A stretch of DNA of 64,000 bases from Synergistaceae bacterium. Its GTDB lineage: Bacteria > Synergistota > Synergistia > Synergistales > Aminobacteriaceae. Position 1 is the stretch's first letter; each line of letters begins with the position of its first letter. Positions 1-8,031 of the stretch are shown piece by piece. A model generated the notes under the pieces. It was given only the letters and a program-made list of their open reading frames with translations. It was not told where the DNA came from and searched no databases. The translations under genes and the position numbers were made by a program. Location: assembly GCA_017470485.1 (NCBI GenBank), contig JAFUYQ010000012.1, positions 21,535-85,534 on the forward strand, given 5' to 3'.

Positions 1-513
1 GTTACAGCCGTAAAGGACATTCCCCAGAACGCAAGGCGTGATTTAACGCTGGCACTGATAACTCTGAAATACACTCAGTCAAATTCAGTCTGTGTAACGA
101 AAGACGGTCAGACGTTAGGAGTCGGAGCAGGTCAGCAGTCGAGGCTTCATTGCGTGAAACTTGCGTGTGATAAGGCTGACTTGAGATTACTCCGCGAACA
201 CCCGAAAGTTTTAGAGCTTGAGTTCCGCGATGATTTAGGCCGTCCCGAACGCGACAACGCTATAGCCTCAATGCTTGCCGGTGATTTCCTCAAAGCTGAT
301 GAAAAACGTGATTTCCTCGCCGAAAACGTTGGGGGGAGTCTGGGGAGTGATGCTTTCTTCCCGTTCCCTGACAGCATAGAGAGGGCAAGACTTAGCGGCG
401 TGAAGTATGTCGCTCAGCCCGGCGGTTCAATCCGTGATGACCTCGTGATTAAGGCATGTGATGATTACGGAATGTCTATGGTCATGACCGGCAGGAGATT
501 GTTCCATCACTAA
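1..513 (+). CDS. purH: Bifunctional AICAR transformylase/IMP cyclohydrolase PurH, C-terminal part (5' end outside window)
   Basis: Frame 1 is open from nt 1. The translation ...VTKDGQTLGVGAGQQSRLHC...GSDAFFPFPDSIERARLSGVKYVAQPGGSIRDDLVIKACDDYGMSMVMTGRRLFHH matches the conserved PurH C-terminus. purD and purL lie downstream. Confidence 0.9.
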   Translation, partial: VTAVKDIPQNARRDLTLALITLKYTQSNSVCVTKDGQTLGVGAGQQSRLHCVKLACDKADLRLLREHPKVLELEFRDDLGRPERDNAIASMLAGDFLKADEKRDFLAENVGGSLGSDAFFPFPDSIERARLSGVKYVAQPGGSIRDDLVIKACDDYGMSMVMTGRRLFHH

Positions 514-528
514 GCGGAGGCAATAGCT

Positions 529-1233
529 GTGGAAATTCTCGCTGGAGTGTTCGTGAAGTATTGGGAGGAAGTTATAGTAGCAGTTATGTTGACTGCTACA
601 CTTCCTTTTATTCGCAGATATGTGAGGAGGCAGAGAGCGAAAATGCTTAGTATTTTCAAGGAAAGGGAACGTTTGAAAGCGGCATTGAGTGAGGCGGAAG
701 GACGTGCAGAGAGTGAGCGTAAGGTACGTGAGGAGTTGGAGCGCAAACTTGAGGCTGAGACTGCGGAGAGGCGGAAAGCAGTTGATGAGGCTGAAAATCT
801 GCGTGCATTGTTGGAACAGGAGCGCAAGGCACATGATGAGGCAGAGCGCAAATGTCAGGCTGAGGCGGACGAGAAGCGCAAGTTTCAAAGTGAGGCCGAA
901 AATCTGCGTGTCGCGTTGGAGCAGGAACAGAAAGCTCGTGAACAGGCGGAACGTACAATCGGTGCTGAAACTGTGGAGAGGCGCAAAGCTCAAGAAGAGA
1001 TAGAGGGGCTTCGGGCAGAAATTCAGCAGGAACGCAAAGCACGTGAGGAGATAGAGCGTAAATATCAGGCTGAAGCTGAGGAGCGGAGCAAAATTCAGTC
1101 TGACAATGAGCGTACTTGGGAGGCTCGCATGGAGGCTGAACGTCGGCGCACTAAGGAGTGGCAAAAGTCTCAAGAAGAAAGGCGCAAGGCATCAAGTCTA
1201 TCCAATTGGGGGATACCTAGTTATCTGAAATAA
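529..1233 (+). CDS. Membrane-anchored coiled-coil repeat protein (unknown function)
   Basis: GTG start 8 nt after GGAGG (516-520). One N-terminal hydrophobic helix (VIVAVMLTATLPFI) is followed by about 200 aa of E/K/R/A-rich sequence. That sequence has three clear 35-aa units: EAENLRALLEQERKAHDEAERKCQAEADEKRKFQS / EAENLRVALEQEQKAREQAERTIGAETVERRKAQE / EIEGLRAEIQQERKAREEIERKYQAEAEERSKIQS. Confidence 0.6.
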   Translation: MEILAGVFVKYWEEVIVAVMLTATLPFIRRYVRRQRAKMLSIFKERERLKAALSEAEGRAESERKVREELERKLEAETAERRKAVDEAENLRALLEQERKAHDEAERKCQAEADEKRKFQSEAENLRVALEQEQKAREQAERTIGAETVERRKAQEEIEGLRAEIQQERKAREEIERKYQAEAEERSKIQSDNERTWEARMEAERRRTKEWQKSQEERRKASSLSNWGIPSYLK

Positions 1234-1260
1234 AAAGCAACAACGAAAGAAGGCAAAAAC

Positions 1261-1300
1261 ATGAACATACTCATAATCGGCGGAGGCAGACGCGTAATCG
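1261..1300 (+). pseudogene. Duplicated fragment of the purD 5' end (start codon plus first ~9 codons, then degenerate)
   Basis: atgaacatactcataatcggcggaggc (1261-1287) is identical to the true purD start at 6689-6715. Similarity then decays (agacgcg-taatcgc vs ggacgtgaacatgtaatcgc). Confidence 0.85.
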
Positions 1301-1306
1301 CAGAAA

Positions 1307-1555
1307 ATGTTTAATGAAATTCAGTACTCAAAGCAGGCAATCAAATTCCTGAATAAACAGCCATTGCGGATTCGTCAGCTTATCGTTCAGGCAATAAAGC
1401 AAATCCCAGAGGGCGACATCGTAAAACTTCAGGGCAGAGATGGATACAGGTTACGGGTTGGAAGTTACAGAGTAATTTTCGACCACGATGGCCATATCAT
1501 TTTCATCAATAAAATCGGCAGTCGCGGAGATGTATACAAAGGAGGCAAAAACTGA
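1307..1555 (+). CDS. RelE/ParE-family type II toxin
   Basis: 82 aa. GYRLRVGSYRVIFDHDGHIIFINKIGSRGDVYK is the classic RelE/ParE C-terminal signature (YRLRVGdYRvIy...I.I..I.hRg..Y). Its ATG overlaps the stop of the purD-fragment mini-ORF (ATGTTTAA). Confidence 0.75.
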   Translation: MFNEIQYSKQAIKFLNKQPLRIRQLIVQAIKQIPEGDIVKLQGRDGYRLRVGSYRVIFDHDGHIIFINKIGSRGDVYKGGKN

Positions 1556-1792
1556 TTGAACGCAATTAAGGAACGAATATTCGGAGCTGTTACCGTAATG
1601 GATAACTCATCTGCCTTAAAGTTGTGGGAGTTTATCACAAACGAGTTTGTTCATTCGGCAGACTGGCACGGCATACCAGAAACAGAACCAGATGAATTTG
1701 ACTTGCATATGCTGGCGGAAATTGAACAGGATAAAGACTGTCATGAATTTATTCCGGCTGAAGAAGCTGAAAAAATGCTAGGTCTTGCATAA
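1556..1792 (+). CDS. Small acidic protein, putative cognate antitoxin (toxin-first gene order)
   Basis: It starts directly after the toxin stop (TGA 1553-1555; TTG 1556, alternative in-frame ATG 1598). 64-78 aa, acidic C-terminal half. The call is by position only; no DNA-binding motif is recognisable by eye. Confidence 0.4.
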   Translation: MNAIKERIFGAVTVMDNSSALKLWEFITNEFVHSADWHGIPETEPDEFDLHMLAEIEQDKDCHEFIPAEEAEKMLGLA

Positions 1793-1806
1793 CCCTAAAG
1801 AAAGAA

Positions 1807-1867
1807 GGCAAGACTTAGCAGTGTAAAGTATGTCGCTCAGCCCGGCGGTTCGATTCGTGATGACCTC
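1807..1867 (+). pseudogene. Duplicated internal fragment of the purH 3' region
   Basis: 61 nt (ggcaagacttagcagtgtaaagtatgtcgctcagcccggcggttcgattcgtgatgacctc) align without gaps to purH 384-444 with 5 mismatches. No intact reading frame continues. Confidence 0.85.
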
Positions 1868-1880
1868 TGTTAATGAAGGA

Positions 1881-1917
1881 ATTCAGCACACTGGGATATA
1901 GTGTGCTGAATTTTTTA
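1881..1917 (+). terminator. Rho-independent terminator
   Basis: Perfect 12-bp stem attcagcacact / agtgtgctgaat with a 7-nt loop, followed by a T-run (tttttt). Confidence 0.65.
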
Positions 1918-1949
1918 TGTTACACTTTAGTTTATTCTTTTGATGAGAG

Positions 1950-3899
1950 GTGCGGAAGTTTATGGAAAGCATTATCGAAATCGCGTTAGCATGTATTCTT
2001 TCAACCGTTCTTTTTGCTGCATTGATAATATACATCTCGAAACACCCGCAGAAAAGTACAAAGCCGCTGAAAATAATATTTGTCTTCATGTTCATATCCG
2101 GCATGATTCTATACTGCTACTGTCATTATCAGGTTCTCGAAAAGGCAAATCAGTCAGGTAATCCGGAAAACAGCCTTTTCGCATGGGCTAAAGACGCTTG
2201 GGCTTCAAAAATACTGTACATCTCAATGAGATCCGTCATCGACGTAGGAATGATGTTCTACGGACGCGCCGACAGTGATGCGTTCTACAAGCTGGACGAG
2301 GCTAAAGACCCGTTATATGTCTGCTTGTTCTGGCTGATTAACGTGGTTTCTTTCTGTACGGCTGCAAGCGCATTGCTCATACATTTCGGGAACGACCTCC
2401 TCAGATGGATTAAGATAGCACAAACAAAAGTCTCCGACATTGATTTAGTGTACGGCGTAAGCCCTGACTCGATTGCGTTCGGAAGAAATATCGCTGAAAC
2501 AAAGGGCAGAATGCTCATCTATGTTGACAGCATAATCGGAGAGGATTTCGAGGCTTCAATACGTGATATGGGCGGACTTAGCTATTCAGATAAAGACGCT
2601 CTGAAAGCTACTCAGTCATTCCTGAAAGAAATAAGAGTCAGACCACTGAAAACAAGACTCAGGCTTTTCGCTCTGTCCTATAAATACGATAATAACCTTC
2701 AATACGCCCGTATGATGTCCGAAAGTCTCCAGAAAGCCGGAATACTCCCCGAACAAACTGAACTTGTTCTTCTCGGCTCGGACGAATGGAAGGGAATTAT
2801 ATTCCAGTCCGGCGAAAATCAATACGGTTACGGGAAAGTTCTCTCGTTCGATGAATATGAGATGAGCGCACGCCTCCTCATCAATAAATATCCTCCGTGC
2901 AATGCAATACATTTCGACACAGACGGACGGGCGACTGAAAACATGGAAGTTCTCATAGTAGGGTTCGGGCGAATCGGTCATGAAGTCCTCCGAAAACTCA
3001 TCGCTAACGGACAGTTTGAGGGAAGCCGCTTCCATGCCACAATATATCAGCCTGATGTCGAAAACATCGCAGGGTTCTTCAAGTCTCAGTATCCTCTGAT
3101 GTTTGCGAAGGAAAATTACGACATCGACTTCCAGCTTCACGGCGGAAGAGGCAGCGAAATTTTCAGCTTCCTACGCGAAAACGCTCCCAAACTGAAATAT
3201 ATCGTCATATGCCTTGAGGACAGAGACCTCGCAAGAGACATAGCCGTCCGAATGGTCGAGAGTCTTCAAATCATGGGGTACTCCCTGAACGTTTACACCT
3301 GCGACTCGAAAAGCGTCAGATGTTACTCACAGTACGCAAGAGAGTGCGAAACTTACATGATATGCGACTCGGATCTCCTTTATTCCGGCGAACTCGACCG
3401 ATACGCTATGGAACTTAACCACCGTTACTGCGGAGGTTCAAGCCTCAATGAAGACTGGAAGAAGTGCGCTTACTTCGACAGAATGAGCAGCAGGGCAAGC
3501 GTTGATTACCTCATACCCGTAATCCGCAGAATAACGGCGAAAACTAACTCAAATGCCCTGACGCATGAACAGAGAGAAAATCTTGCGAAGAGCGAACATT
3601 TAAGATGGTGTGCGTTCCATTACACTTTCGGATTTGATGTCATGGACAAAAACGAGTTCATTCAGCGCGTTAAAGACCGTCAGAACGAAATCAGGCAGTT
3701 CGGGAAGTCATCAATCAAAGTAACGAAGGATAACAAGAAATTAACTCATGTATGTCTTGTTGACTGGGACGAACTTGACGAGATTTCGAGGATTGAGAAC
3801 TCACTGACTCACGGGAACAGGGACTACAAAGAATCTGACAGAATGAATGTCGATATGGTCGCTGAAATCATGAGAGATAACGGGGAAAAATCAAATTAA
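1950..3899 (+). CDS. Membrane protein with cytoplasmic Rossmann-like (TrkA-N-type) segment(s) and C-terminal RyR-domain-like repeats
   Basis: GTG 1950 or ATG 1962. About 4 hydrophobic helices lie in the first 150 aa. GxGxxG motif in MEVLIVGFGRIGHEVLRKLIANG. C-terminal motifs YAMELNHRY...W...SSRASVDYL and LAKSEHLRWCAFHYTFGF...KLTHVCLVDWDELDE...YKESDRMNV resemble the RyR domain consensus (LAexiHexW....GW...k.hP.LvpydeL.e..K..DR) as I recall it. Confidence 0.55.
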   Translation: MRKFMESIIEIALACILSTVLFAALIIYISKHPQKSTKPLKIIFVFMFISGMILYCYCHYQVLEKANQSGNPENSLFAWAKDAWASKILYISMRSVIDVGMMFYGRADSDAFYKLDEAKDPLYVCLFWLINVVSFCTAASALLIHFGNDLLRWIKIAQTKVSDIDLVYGVSPDSIAFGRNIAETKGRMLIYVDSIIGEDFEASIRDMGGLSYSDKDALKATQSFLKEIRVRPLKTRLRLFALSYKYDNNLQYARMMSESLQKAGILPEQTELVLLGSDEWKGIIFQSGENQYGYGKVLSFDEYEMSARLLINKYPPCNAIHFDTDGRATENMEVLIVGFGRIGHEVLRKLIANGQFEGSRFHATIYQPDVENIAGFFKSQYPLMFAKENYDIDFQLHGGRGSEIFSFLRENAPKLKYIVICLEDRDLARDIAVRMVESLQIMGYSLNVYTCDSKSVRCYSQYARECETYMICDSDLLYSGELDRYAMELNHRYCGGSSLNEDWKKCAYFDRMSSRASVDYLIPVIRRITAKTNSNALTHEQRENLAKSEHLRWCAFHYTFGFDVMDKNEFIQRVKDRQNEIRQFGKSSIKVTKDNKKLTHVCLVDWDELDEISRIENSLTHGNRDYKESDRMNVDMVAEIMRDNGEKSN

Positions 3900-3916
3900 C
3901 TGGAGGAAGATTCATC

Positions 3917-6016
3917 ATGGAACAGGAATTTAAGTATTACGCTTTCATCAGCTACAGCCACAAAGACCAGAAAATCGCCAAGCAGCTTCAGAAGCGTCTC
4001 GAACGCTATCATCTTCCGGCCACTATCATTGACGATCACCCTGACCTTCCCAAGAAACTCAGTCCAATCTTCGTTGACGAGTCAGACCTCGTAGCAATAG
4101 ACGGAAGCCTGAGCGATTCACTGAAAGGCTTTCTCAGTGAATCGAATTATCTCATTGTGATTTGTTCGCCCAACAGCGCAAAATCTCCGTACTGCAATGA
4201 CGAAGTGGACTACTTCATCAACACGCTGCACAGAGCGGATCACATTATCCCATTGATTGTCGGAGGATTACCGCACGCCCAAGACCCCTCGCTGGAATGC
4301 TTCACTCCTGCACTTCTGTCGCTTCCCAGAGAGCTTGAGCCGCTGGGAATTGACCTCAAGACGTTCGGAAAGCGTGATTCTTTTCTCAGGGTCATGGCCA
4401 CGATGCTGAGGCTGAATCTTGACTACTTCAAGTCGAGGGAGGACGAGGCGAGAAAAAGAAGGTTGATGATATTTGGGGCAATGGCGGCGGTACTTGCGGT
4501 GATTTTTGGGGTGCTTATCTGGTACAGTGTCGAGACATTTATTCTTATGCGGAGCGGTAGTTCAATTTCACAATTCTATTTTGGCCGAATGTATGAACGA
4601 ATGAAGAATTACGACAAGGCAAAGGAGTGGTATGAAAAGGCCGCCGCTAACGGTGATGCCACTGCTCAATTTAATCTGGGCTACATGTACGATAAAGGTT
4701 TGGGAGTAGAGCAGGACTACGCAAAGGCTGTAGAGTTGTACGAAAAGGCCGCTACTCAAGGTGATGCCGATGCTCAAAATAATCTAGGCATGATGTATGC
4801 ACATGGTCAAGGAATAGAGCAGGATTATGCAAAAGCTATAGAATGGTACGGAAAGGCAGTTGCTCAGGGTAATGCCTCTGCTCAAAATAATCTGGGCTAC
4901 ATGTACGATAAAGGCTTGGGAGTAAAGCAGGATTACGCAAAGGCTAGTGAATGGTACGAAAAGGCCGCCGCTCAGGGTCTTGCTAGTGCTCAAAATAATC
5001 TGGGCTACATGTACGATAAAGGTTTGGGAGTAAAGCAGGATTACGCAAAGGCTAGTGAATGGTACGAAAAGGCCGCCGCTCAGGGTCTTGCTAGTGCTCA
5101 AAATAATCTAGGCATGATGTACCATAACGGTCGTCAGGGAGTAAAGAAGGATTACGCAAAAGCTATAGAGTTGTACGAAAAGGCCACCGCTCAAGGTCAT
5201 GCCACTGCTCAAAATAATCTGGGCTATATGTACCAACATGGTCAAGGAGTAGAACAGGATTACGCAAAAGCTATAGAATGGTACGAAAAGGCAGTTGCTC
5301 AGGGTAATGCCGCTGCTCAAAATAATTTGGGCTGTATGTACGAACATGGTCGTGGAGTAAAGCAGGATTACGCAAAGGCTAGAGAGTTGTACGAAAAGGC
5401 CACCGCTCAAGGTCATGCCACTGCTCAATTTAATCTGGGCGTGATGTATTATAACGGTCAGGGAGTAAAGCAGGATTACGCAAAGGCTAGAGAGTTGTAC
5501 GAAAAGGCCGCTGCTCAAGGCGATGCCGATGCTCAAAATAATTTGGGCTGGATATACAATAAAGGCTTGGGAGTAGAGCAGGACTACGCAAAGGCTGTAA
5601 AGTTGTACGAAAAGGCCGCCGCTCAGGGGCAGGCCAATGCTCAAAATAATCTGGGCAATATGTACGAATACGGTAAGGGAGTAAAAAAGGATTACGCGAA
5701 AGCTATTGAATGGTACGAAAAGGCGGCAGCTCAGGGTCATGCCAAAGCTCAAGATAATTTTGTTGATATTGCCTTTATGTACGTCTGGGGCTGGGGAGTA
5801 GAACAGGATTATGTGAAAGGTAGGGAGCTGTATGAAAAGGCAGCTGCTCAGGGTAATGCTAAGGCTCAAAATGCTCTTGGCTTTATGTACGATAACGGCT
5901 TGGGAGTAGAACAGGACTACGCAAAAGCTATAGAATGGTACGAAAAGGCGGCAGCTCAAGGATTTTCAGACGCTCAAAAACGGCTGGACGAACTGAAAAA
6001 CTCACAGGCCAAATAA
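3917..6016 (+). CDS. TIR domain - single TM - ~13 Sel1-like repeat (SLR) protein
   Basis: GGAGG RBS. N-terminus YYAFISYSHKDQKIAKQL...NYLIVICSPNSAKSPYCNDEVDYF is TIR-like, with the conserved Glu at codon 96 (nt 4202-4204). TM at about aa 183-203, preceded by KRR. Then 13 units of 36 aa of type AQNNLGxMYxxGxGVxQDYAKAxEWYEKAAAQG (Sel1 signature). Confidence 0.85.
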   Translation: MEQEFKYYAFISYSHKDQKIAKQLQKRLERYHLPATIIDDHPDLPKKLSPIFVDESDLVAIDGSLSDSLKGFLSESNYLIVICSPNSAKSPYCNDEVDYFINTLHRADHIIPLIVGGLPHAQDPSLECFTPALLSLPRELEPLGIDLKTFGKRDSFLRVMATMLRLNLDYFKSREDEARKRRLMIFGAMAAVLAVIFGVLIWYSVETFILMRSGSSISQFYFGRMYERMKNYDKAKEWYEKAAANGDATAQFNLGYMYDKGLGVEQDYAKAVELYEKAATQGDADAQNNLGMMYAHGQGIEQDYAKAIEWYGKAVAQGNASAQNNLGYMYDKGLGVKQDYAKASEWYEKAAAQGLASAQNNLGYMYDKGLGVKQDYAKASEWYEKAAAQGLASAQNNLGMMYHNGRQGVKKDYAKAIELYEKATAQGHATAQNNLGYMYQHGQGVEQDYAKAIEWYEKAVAQGNAAAQNNLGCMYEHGRGVKQDYAKARELYEKATAQGHATAQFNLGVMYYNGQGVKQDYAKARELYEKAAAQGDADAQNNLGWIYNKGLGVEQDYAKAVKLYEKAAAQGQANAQNNLGNMYEYGKGVKKDYAKAIEWYEKAAAQGHAKAQDNFVDIAFMYVWGWGVEQDYVKGRELYEKAAAQGNAKAQNALGFMYDNGLGVEQDYAKAIEWYEKAAAQGFSDAQKRLDELKNSQAK
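4880..5095 (+). repeat. Near-perfect tandem duplication, 2 x 108 bp (three SLR-length... one SLR unit each) inside the TIR-SLR gene
   Basis: 4880-4987 and 4988-5095 differ at one position (aaaggCttggg vs aaaggTttggg). Both encode AQNNLGYMYDKGLGVKQDYAKASEWYEKAAAQGLAS. Confidence 0.9.
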
Positions 6017-6038
6017 TTCTGAAGGAGGTTTTATCAAA

Positions 6039-6683
6039 ATGACATCAATGAATCTGACTGTTGACGGTAAATTACTGGACATGCTCACACGCTCAAGCTC
6101 CGCGCTCGGCGTTGAGGTCAGTCAGGTATTGAACGACGCTGTGGGAGCGTACTTCCGCAAACTCGTTACCGACGGAAAAATCCCGATGGACGAAGCCTGC
6201 TCCTCATTGAGCAGTAACACCCCTGAGACTGAATACACCCTCGCTGACTCAAAATCCCTCAGCGACCACAGAAAATACAGCCTCACTCAAAAAGAACGCT
6301 CAGCATTAAGCAAAACTCAGCTCAAAAACGCCGGCAAGGCCGAGAACGGCGACCCTAAAGCCCAGAACGTCATGGGAACTTATTACGAGAGCGGAAACGG
6401 TGTCGAGAAAGATTACATGAAAGCGATTTACTGGTACACTAAATCAGCGGAGCAGGGAAACTCTAACGCTCAGTATCATCTCGCTGTCCTCTATAACAAG
6501 GTCGAGGATAACCCGTTGAAGTCGTATTACTGGTTTGAGGTAGCGAGGCTTTGCGGTTTCAATGTAACGGCGATTCATCAGGATTATATGCTGAGATTGA
6601 CTGAGAGGCTTTCGGAGCGTCAGATAAAACTCGCTCAGGACGAAGCCTTAAAGAAATTCAACGCAATACAGAAAGGAGAATAA
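6039..6683 (+). CDS. Ribbon-helix-helix-like N-terminus fused to Sel1-like repeats
   Basis: AGGAGG RBS. MNLTVDGKLLDMLTRSSSALGVEVSQVLNDAVGAYFRKL fits the beta-alpha-alpha RHH (CopG/Arc) pattern. The C-terminal half has SLR units (AQNVMGTYYESGNGVEKDYMKAIYWYTKSAEQGNSNAQYHLAVLY). Confidence 0.6.
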   Translation: MTSMNLTVDGKLLDMLTRSSSALGVEVSQVLNDAVGAYFRKLVTDGKIPMDEACSSLSSNTPETEYTLADSKSLSDHRKYSLTQKERSALSKTQLKNAGKAENGDPKAQNVMGTYYESGNGVEKDYMKAIYWYTKSAEQGNSNAQYHLAVLYNKVEDNPLKSYYWFEVARLCGFNVTAIHQDYMLRLTERLSERQIKLAQDEALKKFNAIQKGE

Positions 6684-6688
6684 ATCAC

Positions 6689-7945
6689 ATGAACATACTC
6701 ATAATCGGCGGAGGCGGACGTGAACATGTAATCGCTAAGCGTGTCGCCCAAAATCCCAACGTCAGCAAAATTTACGCTCTTCCCGGCAACGGCGGTATCT
6801 CTCAAATCGCTGAATGCGTCAAAATTTCAGCGGAAGACATTGACAACATAACATCATTCGCGAAGACTCATGACATTGATTTCGCTGTTGTCGCTCCCGA
6901 TGACCCTCTCGCGCTCGGAGCTGTTGACAGGCTTGAGGCTGAGGGCATTAAATGTTTCGGCCCCTCGAAGAACGCCGCTGTCATTGAGGGAAGCAAGGTT
7001 TTCGCTAAGGAACTCATGGCGAAATACAACATACCTACGGCAAAATACGAGGTCTTCACGGATATTGACAAGGCGTTGTCTTACGCCGCACTTTCGGACT
7101 GCCCAATCGTGATTAAGGCTGACGGTCTGGCTAAAGGCAAGGGCGTAACTGTCGCTGAGAATTTCCAGCAGGCTAGAGAGGCGATAATGTCCTGCATGAA
7201 GGATAAGGCGTTCGGCCATAGCGGTGAGCGAATCTTAATTGAGGAATGCTTAACGGGAAAAGAAGTTACGGTTTTGGCGTTCACTGACGGTGATACTATT
7301 ATCCCTATGGTTTCGTCAATGGATCATAAGCGCGCCTATGACGGCAACAAAGGCCCTAATACCGGCGGAATGGGCGTAATAGCTCCGAACCCTTACTACA
7401 CTCCTGAGATTGCTGAACAGTGCATGAGGACTATATTCCTTCCGACAATGAAGGCCATGAACAATGAAGGCCGAAAGTTCAAAGGCTGTCTTTATTTCGG
7501 ATTAATGCTGACGGATAAAGGCTCTAAAGTCATTGAGTATAACTGCCGTTTCGGAGACCCTGAAGCTGAAGCGGTGCTTCCCTTAATGGAAAGCGATTTG
7601 CTTGACGTTATGATGGCGGTGAGAGACGAGAGACTCTCTGATGTCCCAGTGAGGTTCAAAGAGGGAGCGTCATGCTGTGTGGTCTGCGCGTCATCAGGGT
7701 ATCCGGCCTCATACCTTACGGGTTACGAGATAGACTTCGGGAACGCTGAAGGGATTGAGGGTGTTGAGGTTTTCCACGCAGGAACTAAGAAGGAGGACGG
7801 AAAGTATTACACTTCGGGCGGAAGAGTCTTGGCGGTCAACGCTGTGAGCGGTGATTTAGAGTCCGCGCGAGAAAAGGCTTACAAGGCTGTTGACCAAGTA
7901 AACTTTGAGGGAATGCGTTACAGAACTGATATAGGAACTCTCTAA
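6689..7945 (+). CDS. purD: Phosphoribosylamine--glycine ligase
   Basis: 418 aa. MNILIIGGGGREHVIAKR..., ATP-grasp core and GGRVL near the C-terminus are typical of PurD. Confidence 0.95.
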   Translation: MNILIIGGGGREHVIAKRVAQNPNVSKIYALPGNGGISQIAECVKISAEDIDNITSFAKTHDIDFAVVAPDDPLALGAVDRLEAEGIKCFGPSKNAAVIEGSKVFAKELMAKYNIPTAKYEVFTDIDKALSYAALSDCPIVIKADGLAKGKGVTVAENFQQAREAIMSCMKDKAFGHSGERILIEECLTGKEVTVLAFTDGDTIIPMVSSMDHKRAYDGNKGPNTGGMGVIAPNPYYTPEIAEQCMRTIFLPTMKAMNNEGRKFKGCLYFGLMLTDKGSKVIEYNCRFGDPEAEAVLPLMESDLLDVMMAVRDERLSDVPVRFKEGASCCVVCASSGYPASYLTGYEIDFGNAEGIEGVEVFHAGTKKEDGKYYTSGGRVLAVNAVSGDLESAREKAYKAVDQVNFEGMRYRTDIGTL

Positions 7946-8031
7946 AAAATTCATGAGGACGGGTGATTTTTTCCCTGTCTTTCCCGTATAATACCTCCAT
8001 CACGGAATTTCCGCATGGAGGTTTATTAAAC

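Follow-up and report, generated by a model that had tools for sequence, protein, structure and literature searches.

Two separate recombination events probably left core-gene scars on either side of a RelE-type toxin-antitoxin cassette between purH and purD in a Synergistaceae genome

Campbell-type integration by phages and integrative elements duplicates the end of the target gene, be it a tRNA gene or the end of another gene. Chromosomal integration hotspots have also reportedly been described between conserved core genes (Touchon et al. 2009; Oliveira, Touchon & Rocha 2017). In homology-facilitated illegitimate recombination (HFIR), one homologous anchor is combined with an illegitimate join at a microhomology of a few bp nearby (PMC3240628, PMC5361080). 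This has been seen in the transformation of Streptococcus, Acinetobacter and Pseudomonas and in conjugation in E. coli (PMC3240628; primary studies, as represented in these two articles: de Vries & Wackernagel 2002, Prudhomme et al. 2002, Meier & Wackernagel 2003), and it has been put forward to explain stacked orphan arrays in the V. cholerae type VI secretion system (T6SS) and in Rhs loci (PMC5361080). In T6SS effector-immunity arrays and in Rhs and contact-dependent inhibition (CDI) arrays, a new module enters beside a conserved upstream gene and pushes the old one downstream (Kirchberger et al. 2017, PMC5361080). Here, a RelE-type toxin-antitoxin (TA) cassette lying between purH and purD was analyzed in a stretch of 64,000 nt from a Synergistaceae bacterium (GCA_017470485.1, contig JAFUYQ010000012.1, positions 21,535 to 85,534 of the forward strand), the whole of which is referred to as the window.

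The cassette was found to be bracketed by a copy of the purD start (purD') on its left and a copy of a purH-internal piece (purH') on its right (see Table 1). It is considered probable that two hotspot alleles were stacked here by HFIR-like recombination and that purD' and purH' are the scars of two separate events. The order along the chromosome, namely purH, coiled-coil gene, purD', TA, purH', terminator, TIR island and purD, was as reported in an earlier reading of the letters alone (the sequence-only reading), and the repeats described there were all recovered. The identity of 1261-1287 with the purD start at 6689-6715 lies inside an identical stretch (1259-1287) of a longer match between 1259-1292 and 6687-6720 (33/34) in a repeat scan. 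However, purD' is longer than had been described; it reaches 1300 (...GTAATCGC) and covers purD nt 1-46 apart from 6 nt deleted in frame. The copy of purH 384-444 at 1807-1867 was reproduced with its 5 mismatches (61 nt, 91.8%, E 6e-19 against the local flanks), within a match of 1803-1867 to 380-444 at 59/65. The two long copies are far beyond chance. The 11-mer aaagaaggcaa, noted before at both 1246-1256 and 1801-1811, is included in a 14/15 match of the spacer copies at 1242-1256 and 1797-1811; about 7 bare 11-mer repeats are expected per 8 kb by chance (8000^2/2/4^11), so that such a repeat carries no weight by itself, and this one is meaningful only because relatives show both copies to be the purD upstream spacer.

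The genome of the window (G000) was compared with species genomes of the same genus (G-numbers) and with further contigs and loci (L-numbers). The RelE-type cassette was found at the purH-purD site in seven taxa, namely G000, G013, G062, G015, G042, G047 and the metagenome contig L064. In G013 and G062 the order is purH stop, a 16-nt spacer, purD' (46 nt), 6 nt, toxin, antitoxin, CCCTAAAG, spacer and the real purD. All six taxa keeping the left end (G000, L064, G013, G062, G015 and G042) share one left junction (...AATCGC joined to A(G/A)AAnATG), and the spacer to the left of purD' at 1242-1260 aligns with the spacer before the real purD in G013, G062, L064, G042 and G047. The right junction (TAACCCTAAAG joined to AAAG.AGG..-ATG of purD) likewise does not vary among the five other taxa in which the contig includes the right end, and is present in G000 up to GGCAA at 1811; the G015 contig stops inside the antitoxin, so that its right junction lies outside the contig. 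AATCGC is the end of every purD' copy, including those in taxa whose own purD differs (G013 ...GTTATCACC; L064 ...GCCCTAGTC). This shared ending suggests that the ~65-nt duplication arose once and travels with the cassette, and points to a single origin of the purD' copies. In G062 the two repeats are identical at 40/40 positions.

By synonymous divergence, the cassette is far more recent than the sequences on either side of it (dS 0.1-0.4 against 1.4-2). Between G000 and G062, dS was 0.41 for the toxin and 0.12 for the antitoxin, compared with 1.41 for purH and 1.96 for purD; between G000 and L064 the values were 0.28 for the toxin and 0.12 for the antitoxin, with purH saturated (70% nt identity). 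Identity between G000 and L064 is ~60-80% up to about nt 660, within the coiled-coil gene, and then 92-100% up to 1810. This sharp rise shows that the block has moved between species recently, in this case via homology reaching into the coiled-coil gene. The sequence-only reading had considered that the fragments might belong to a mobile cassette and recur at unrelated loci. The first part held, as purD' moves with the cassette between species, but the second did not, the cassette with its purD' lying always at purH-purD and never at unrelated loci.

The purH' joint shows a different distribution. In the five other cassette taxa with the right end on the contig, the sequence following the antitoxin (CCCTAAAGAAAGAAGGC...) runs into the purD ATG, whereas in the window the same sequence continues up to GGCAA (1807-1811) and is then followed by purH nt 389-444. 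As purH 380-393 reads AGAGGGCAA followed by GACTT, and as spacer identity ends and purH identity begins in GGCAA, the switch lies in this 5-nt microhomology (8/9 with context). The purH' fragment is located to the right of the right-hand purD-spacer copy and therefore interrupts the older purD'...purD repeat, not being paired with purD'. It was found beside the cassette in no other genome of the genus, in none of the five other cassette taxa with a visible right end, and in none of the 14 antitoxin-bearing loci of a metagenome scan, among which there was also no closer intermediate. Over the 56 positions compared, 4/5 differences between purH' and purH are at third codon positions, which is compatible with both a foreign and a local origin, and no donor allele of purH' was found. 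From 1870 on, the window is homologous to the sequence lying 3' of a complete purH in G002, the homology taking in a short leader, the hairpin of the terminator and the 649-aa gene. In G002 this gene directly follows purH and its terminator, and a small Sel1 gene directly precedes purD on a second contig. When compared with G002, purH', which stops at nt 444, is missing purH 445-513 and ~17 nt of spacer.

A scar of similar kind was detected in G051 (L076, G051:C36). At nt ~660-760 of its insert, the final 45 nt of purH are repeated in degenerate form with their stop codon, a terminator hairpin comes next, and the two lie between the Sel1 gene and a PglD-like acetyltransferase. This is an independent analogue, and it is exactly what allele stacking predicts should be left behind. 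G051 apart, no other hotspot cargo was found to be flanked by purD or purH copies.

To define the states of the site within the genus, the purH end and purD start were located in 48 species genomes, and the interval was taken where both lay on one contig (n = 37). Eleven intervals were empty, with spacers of 13-55 nt (among them G004, G005, G009, G016, G018, G019, G046, G055, G057 and G058), while 26 were filled with 240-6175 nt representing at least nine cargo families. These are a coiled-coil protein (sole cargo in G003, G006 and G008), a small Sel1 protein (sole cargo in G053, G020, G021, G045, G056 and G059), the RelE-type TA (sole cargo in G013 and G062), a second TA that pairs a YoeB toxin (PF06769, 2e-34) with a RelB-like antitoxin (G043, L055, G043:C10; G060, L082, G060:C3), an alpha/beta-hydrolase-like protein, a GT11 glycosyltransferase, a hexapeptide acetyltransferase, a TnpB-like protein (G063) and the 649-aa/TIR island (G000 and G002). 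Each cargo block of the window was thus seen at the site without the other blocks, with the coiled-coil gene, TA and small Sel1 gene each occurring alone and the island occurring in G002 without the coiled-coil gene or the TA. The purH-purD spacer is therefore supported as a core-gene-flanked integration hotspot across this Synergistaceae genus. The earlier proposal of a recombination hotspot that had captured at least three cargos was borne out and had understated the case, and the comparison with related purH-purD regions which it had advised for finding the empty site yielded the 11 empty genomes together with single-cargo states.

It is proposed that in the first event, which would be the older one and shared between taxa, a promoter-less toxin/antitoxin pair became linked on its left to purD nt +46, 6 nt before the toxin ATG, and on its right to an entire copy of the purD spacer and gene. 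This would create the ~65-nt direct repeat of which purD' is the left copy. Viewed as HFIR, the incoming fragment would have started just before the toxin, with its right anchor in purD and an illegitimate join at +46 of the recipient purD. The finished unit of purD', toxin, antitoxin and spacer would then have spread among species of the genus, always at purH-purD. Homology to cassette copies elsewhere begins only ~6 nt before the toxin ATG, and neither a promoter nor a Shine-Dalgarno (SD) sequence for the toxin was found in the pur-locus cassette by promoter scan and cassette alignment. Elsewhere, the toxin-partner pair has its own SD or promoter, or lies in a multigene operon of a defence island. 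The purD' open reading frame (ORF) has 17-20 codons in five taxa and ends 8 nt inside the toxin ORF, and translation of the toxin by coupling to this mini-ORF, which keeps the purD SD and ATG, is plausible.

In the second, younger event, which would be confined to the G000 lineage, a TA allele with the order purH, coiled coil, purD', toxin, antitoxin and purD, as in L064, would have been stacked with an island allele with the order purH, terminator, TIR island, Sel1 and purD, as in G002. DNA from a related strain could have served as the HFIR substrate. One crossover would have been homologous and the other illegitimate, at GGCAA between the purD spacer and purH nt 384-388, leaving the duplicated purH 3' piece seen as purH'. 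A secondary deletion of ~86 nt (purH 445-513 plus ~17 nt of spacer), or a more complex join, would then have removed the end of purH'. An illegitimate joint at a microhomology close to homology is present, GGCAA at 1807-1811 having purD and purH anchors on either side, and a ComEC homologue was found in 41/47 other genomes of the genus.

It should also be noted that a number of points weigh against this reading. A full-length purH' (389-513) was seen in no intermediate, so that the extra deletion has to be assumed ad hoc. Among known alleles, the purH of the genome itself comes closest to purH' (51/56), which is compatible with a local origin, and ComEC and DprA were not found in G000, a metagenome-assembled genome (MAG) of 86% completeness. 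While the anatomy of the junctions, the unlike distributions and ages of the two fragments and the horizontal movement of the cassette are shown by the sequences, the recombination pathway, the direction of transfer and the extra deletion are reconstructed, and the mechanism of the first event is deduced from end-state anatomy only. Finally, the intactness of the purD' mini-ORF in five taxa is not significant (P ~0.2, an estimate for no stop plus an in-frame indel by chance) because there are too few substitutions.

Two of these points would favour the main alternative for purH', in which it is no remnant of a second purH allele but a short patch copied from the purH of the same genome, 1.4 kb upstream, by a replication or repair template switch during the joining of the island or the cassette (as in microhomology-mediated break-induced replication or fork stalling and template switching, MMBIR/FoSTeS). 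The fragment is only 56-61 nt long with both ends inside purH, GGCAA provides a microhomology at one junction, and such a patch would fit both the closeness of the own allele and the missing full-length intermediate. The two copies differ by 9%, however, with the differences falling mostly at third positions as between functional alleles, although this is not decisive. Moreover, the scar in G051 retains the purH stop and terminator, which fits allele stacking, and what lies to the right of purH' is the leader found after purH in G002. Such a templated origin is judged unlikely, though with a small chance of being correct.

A second alternative concerns only the spread of the cassette after the first event. 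Recombination between the ~65-nt repeats could excise a toxin-antitoxin circle, which would re-enter at the conserved purD start in a RecA-dependent manner. The direct repeats flanking the cassette are derived from the highly conserved 5' end of a core gene and match at 40/40 positions in G062, and the cassette is far younger than its flanks and always lies at the same site. On the other hand, the young block shared by L064 and G000 reaches ~600 nt to the left into the coiled-coil gene, so that this exchange used longer flanking homology and not the repeat, and 65 nt of homology is short. This route is regarded as improbable. The same doubt applies to the further suggestion that the purD'...purD repeat makes the RelE cassette a recombinase-free, homology-addressed mobile unit in which the retained purD SD, ATG and mini-ORF would allow a toxin without promoter or SD to be expressed. 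If this improbable suggestion were true, an addiction or defence module would be tied to expression of the pur operon, and the circle could insert again at the purD start, which is nearly invariant, in any species of the genus.

Returning to the stacking of two alleles, neither of the single-event origins put forward in the sequence-only reading was borne out, as purD' and purH' do not co-occur across taxa and purH' interrupts the older repeat. The first of them, a tandem duplication of the junction from purH 380 to purD +46 followed by separate insertions into each copy and the duplication joint, gives the same gene order at a hotspot which does take many insertions. It would demand that the TA pair landed exactly on the duplication joint and that every other cassette species deleted purH' precisely, restoring identical spacer-purD junctions, and it leaves the spacer copy to the left of purH' unexplained; it is considered very improbable. 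Slightly less credible still is the integration by a single crossover of a Campbell-type circle carrying the cargo and a purH-purD junction. This would produce the order purH...purD'-cargo-purH'...purD as observed and would form purD' and purH' together, but purD' is present in six taxa and purH' in one, with 0/5 of the other taxa with a visible right end having it. In addition, purH' lies to the right of the right-hand purD spacer and is without the purH end and the junction spacer, and no recombinase gene is present in 1-8000. When 72,556 plasmids and 50,697 phage records were searched with the DNA of the cassette and its flanks, nothing matched.

A mis-assembly, in which a metagenome assembler made chimeric joins at short repeats, is given practically no weight, for although the genome is a MAG and the repeats are below read length but near the k-mer size (k141), the same junctions occur in contigs of three other samples from two pipelines (MEGAHIT-style k141 and Logan), and the purD' state occurs in five reference genomes and one metagenome contig (L064) of other species. 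The exact antitoxin protein is encoded on 8 contigs, of which three were retrieved (ENA ERZ27256832; Logan SRR12529323 and SRR12529339), and these are identical to the window over 1200-1960, both purH' junctions included, which contradicts the mis-assembly that had been named as a possible refutation. A fourth contig, ERZ27256822, is 99.7% identical over window 69-1586. The names carried by near-identical proteins assign the organism to Synergistaceae. The last 28 nt of this ENA contig (L065, 1519-1546) were found to be Illumina adapter (AGATCGGAAGAGC...) and are non-biological.

The toxin on its own scored 22.6 bits against PF05016, for which the cut-off is 23, and many of its homologues of 60-70% identity carry PF05016 and are named RelE/ParE. 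A profile of 31 homologues matched aRelE (1wmi, 6.8e-10) and RelE3 (3bpq, 2.7e-7). The AlphaFold2 (AF2) model of the toxin (pLDDT 79.4) has the topology H-H-E-E-E-E-H (H, helix; E, strand), which agrees with the RelE microbial-RNase fold of two N-terminal helices against an antiparallel sheet plus a C-terminal helix, and ranks 1-9 of the Foldseek search with this model were RelE toxins at TM-scores of 0.46-0.66 (0.56-0.66 for ranks 1-8), with the first ParE at rank 43. The residues Y47, R48, R50, R55, R73, G74 and Y77 are invariant in the 31 homologues, and R73-G-x-x-Y77 aligns with the RG..YK end of aRelE. The conserved basic residues and the C-terminal Arg and Tyr residues would be expected to have a role in mRNA cleavage. 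Profile and model matches together place the toxin in the RelE branch of the RelE/ParE superfamily.

Conservation of the N-terminus (MNAIKERIFGAVTVM) across 29 homologues places the start of the partner protein at TTG 1556, and the TGA stop of the toxin abuts this TTG. The partner is acidic and all-helical, with an isoelectric point (pI) far below that of the toxin (see Table 1). It gave no Pfam, NCBIfam, PDB sequence or profile, or Foldseek fold match, apart from a weak C-terminal hit to DUF6290 at 0.05, and no recognisable DNA-binding domain was found in it by Pfam, NCBIfam, PDB and fold searches. The adjacency of the pair is kept in 20/23 distant metagenome and viral loci (44-66% identity) and also in three genomic contexts, and both genes are under purifying selection (dN/dS 0.05-0.5). 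The toxin was found to have been inactivated at least five times, by a 27-nt deletion removing IGSRGDVYK (G013), by a 129-nt deletion (G042), by a nonsense mutation at codon 10 (G008:C190), by loss of all but the toxin 3' end (G000:C8), and in G047, where only the 3' half of the antitoxin is left, fused to the antitoxin of the YoeB system. The partner is intact in four of these cases and in G047 survives only as the chimeric fragment; no intact toxin with a lost antitoxin was seen among the copies compared. Because it follows the toxin in 20/23 loci, is under purifying selection and is kept where the toxin has decayed, the 78-aa partner is regarded as the putative antitoxin of this toxin.

Further copies of the pair were observed outside the purH-purD site. 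Nine predicted viral contigs in IMG/VR (L103-L111), which are among the distant loci already counted, carry homologues of toxin and partner (44-62% identity), always adjacent and often near a contig end. In the genome of the window itself, a second, orphan antitoxin copy (82% nt identity) is located at G000:C8:38967-39263 (L002 1501-1797), with the last ~70 nt of a toxin left, and is then followed by the same 426-aa-type gene as is found in the defence-island context of L066 and L069. This orphan could possibly cross-neutralise the toxin of the pur locus. In L066 (4823-12071; also in L067 and L068) the pair (87% nt identity) has overlapping stop and start codons and is part of a conserved operon encoding proteins of 392 aa, toxin, antitoxin, 426 aa, AAA+ 504 aa, 487 aa, 88 aa and a WYL protein, adjoining an nSTAND/metallophosphatase NTPase. 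This operon is a candidate for a defence system of several genes that incorporates a RelE pair.

Table 1. Positions of the features of the purH-purD locus within the window.
Feature	Position	Strand	Remarks
purH 3' end (AICARFT/IMPCHase)	1..513	+	Pfam PF01808 8e-14; nt 380-444 are source-type sequence of purH'
Cargo 1: membrane-anchored coiled-coil repeat protein, 234 aa	529..1233	+	ORF with 105-nt repeats
Left copy of purD upstream spacer with SD (GAAGG); start of ~65-nt direct repeat	1242..1260	+	repeat scan
purD' mini-ORF, 17 codons + TAA	1261..1314	+	stop overlaps toxin codons 2-3 (ATGTTTAA)
RelE-type toxin, 82 aa, pI 10.1, without own SD	1307..1555	+	
Putative antitoxin, 78 aa from TTG, pI 4.3	1556..1792	+	strong SD (AAGGAGG) within toxin 3' end
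Cassette tail (CCCTAAAG) and right purD-spacer copy (AAAGAAGGCAA)	1793..1811	+	alignment of 11 cassette copies
Proposed crossover microhomology GGCAA, common to purD spacer and purH nt 384-388	1807..1811	+	
purH' fragment, corresponding to purH nt 389-444	1812..1867	+	51/56 identical to own purH; both ends purH-internal
Island leader and intrinsic terminator	1868..1916	+	stem 1882-1893/1899-1910, U6 at 1911-1916
Cargo 3: 649-aa membrane protein, 699-aa TIR-transmembrane-Sel1 protein, 214-aa Sel1 protein adjoining purD	1950..6683	+	
Real purD, 418 aa	6689..7945	+	Pfam GARS_N/A/C; first 46 nt are right-hand counterpart of purD'; purL next

The full-length purH is 1131 nt (L005/L072). The hairpin at 1882-1916 was not reported by the promoter/terminator scan but is clear on RNA folding (-23.8 kcal/mol, z -7.7). 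The strain represented by ERZ27256832 (L072), which is otherwise identical, differs only in the Sel1 repeat array of the TIR protein (window ~4500-5900), either in repeat number or in sequence. The 214-aa Sel1 protein of the window (6039-6683) is the commonest cargo of the hotspot, being found in at least 11 species, and its N-terminus (NLTVDGKLLDMLTR...VLNDAVGAYFRK) looks like a ribbon-helix-helix. Among the other occupants of the site, the YoeB-type TA sits just upstream of purD and antitoxin-only remnants of it were found in G007, G011 and G012. In G047 (L083, G047:C84, insert nt 2303-2605) a chimeric 100-aa ORF combines the N-terminal part of the YoeB-system antitoxin with the C-terminal 45 aa of the RelE-system antitoxin, and is the product of recombination between two TA cassettes successive at the site. 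The insert of G063 (L075, G063:C2) contains at nt 1255-2586 a 443-aa TnpB/OrfB_IS605-like gene with a weak Pfam match, and no other mobility-type gene was seen among the versions of the hotspot.

The locus can be read as a natural record of accessory genes piling up at a hotspot without dedicated mobility genes. Empty, single-cargo and stacked states are found within one genus, the breakpoints are visible at base resolution, and fragments of core genes mark what would be illegitimate joins. To our knowledge, such core-gene scars have rarely been documented outside T6SS and Rhs loci. The TA pair decays in the expected direction, toxin first, and may have been re-plumbed to the translation start of a housekeeping gene. 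Current concepts are left unchanged; the main value lies in guidance for annotation, in that purD' and purH' are not to be taken as pseudogenes of separate origin, and in a worked example of HFIR-like evolution in uncultured Synergistaceae.

When compared with the systems described at the outset, the locus resembles HFIR in that incoming DNA would be anchored on one side, here in purD or purH, and joined on the other at GGCAA, with genes gained and a scar left. It differs in that HFIR was defined by laboratory transformation, whereas only the end state is seen here and a second small deletion is assumed. The T6SS and Rhs loci likewise form arrays with leftover fragments of a conserved gene, for which an HFIR-like mechanism was proposed by the authors, but those arrays consist of variants of one system, while unrelated cargos (TA, TIR island, glycosyltransferase and others) occur here between purine genes. 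As in hotspots flanked by core genes, one syntenic interval holds different accessory genes in each genome, many of them defence-related, with exchange via flanking homology; the present site differs in lying inside the pur biosynthetic operon and in its small cargo (0.2-6 kb), which is integrase-less save for the TnpB-like gene of G063. With Campbell-type integration it shares a direct repeat, of the purD 5' end, flanking the insert, with the right copy keeping the gene intact, but integrase, attachment-site structure and circular form are all lacking, and the insert is only ~0.5 kb. The cassette itself resembles RelBE type II TA systems (PDB 1wmi, 3bpq, 2khe, 9g12, 4fxe) in the RelE fold, the C-terminal R-G-x-x-Y and the pairing of a small basic toxin with a small acidic partner. 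It is unlike them in that the toxin gene comes first, that the partner comes from a helical, unannotated family in which no DNA-binding domain can be recognised, and that the pair of the pur locus is without its own promoter or toxin SD. Taken together, the locus is a natural example of known processes and not a new kind of element.

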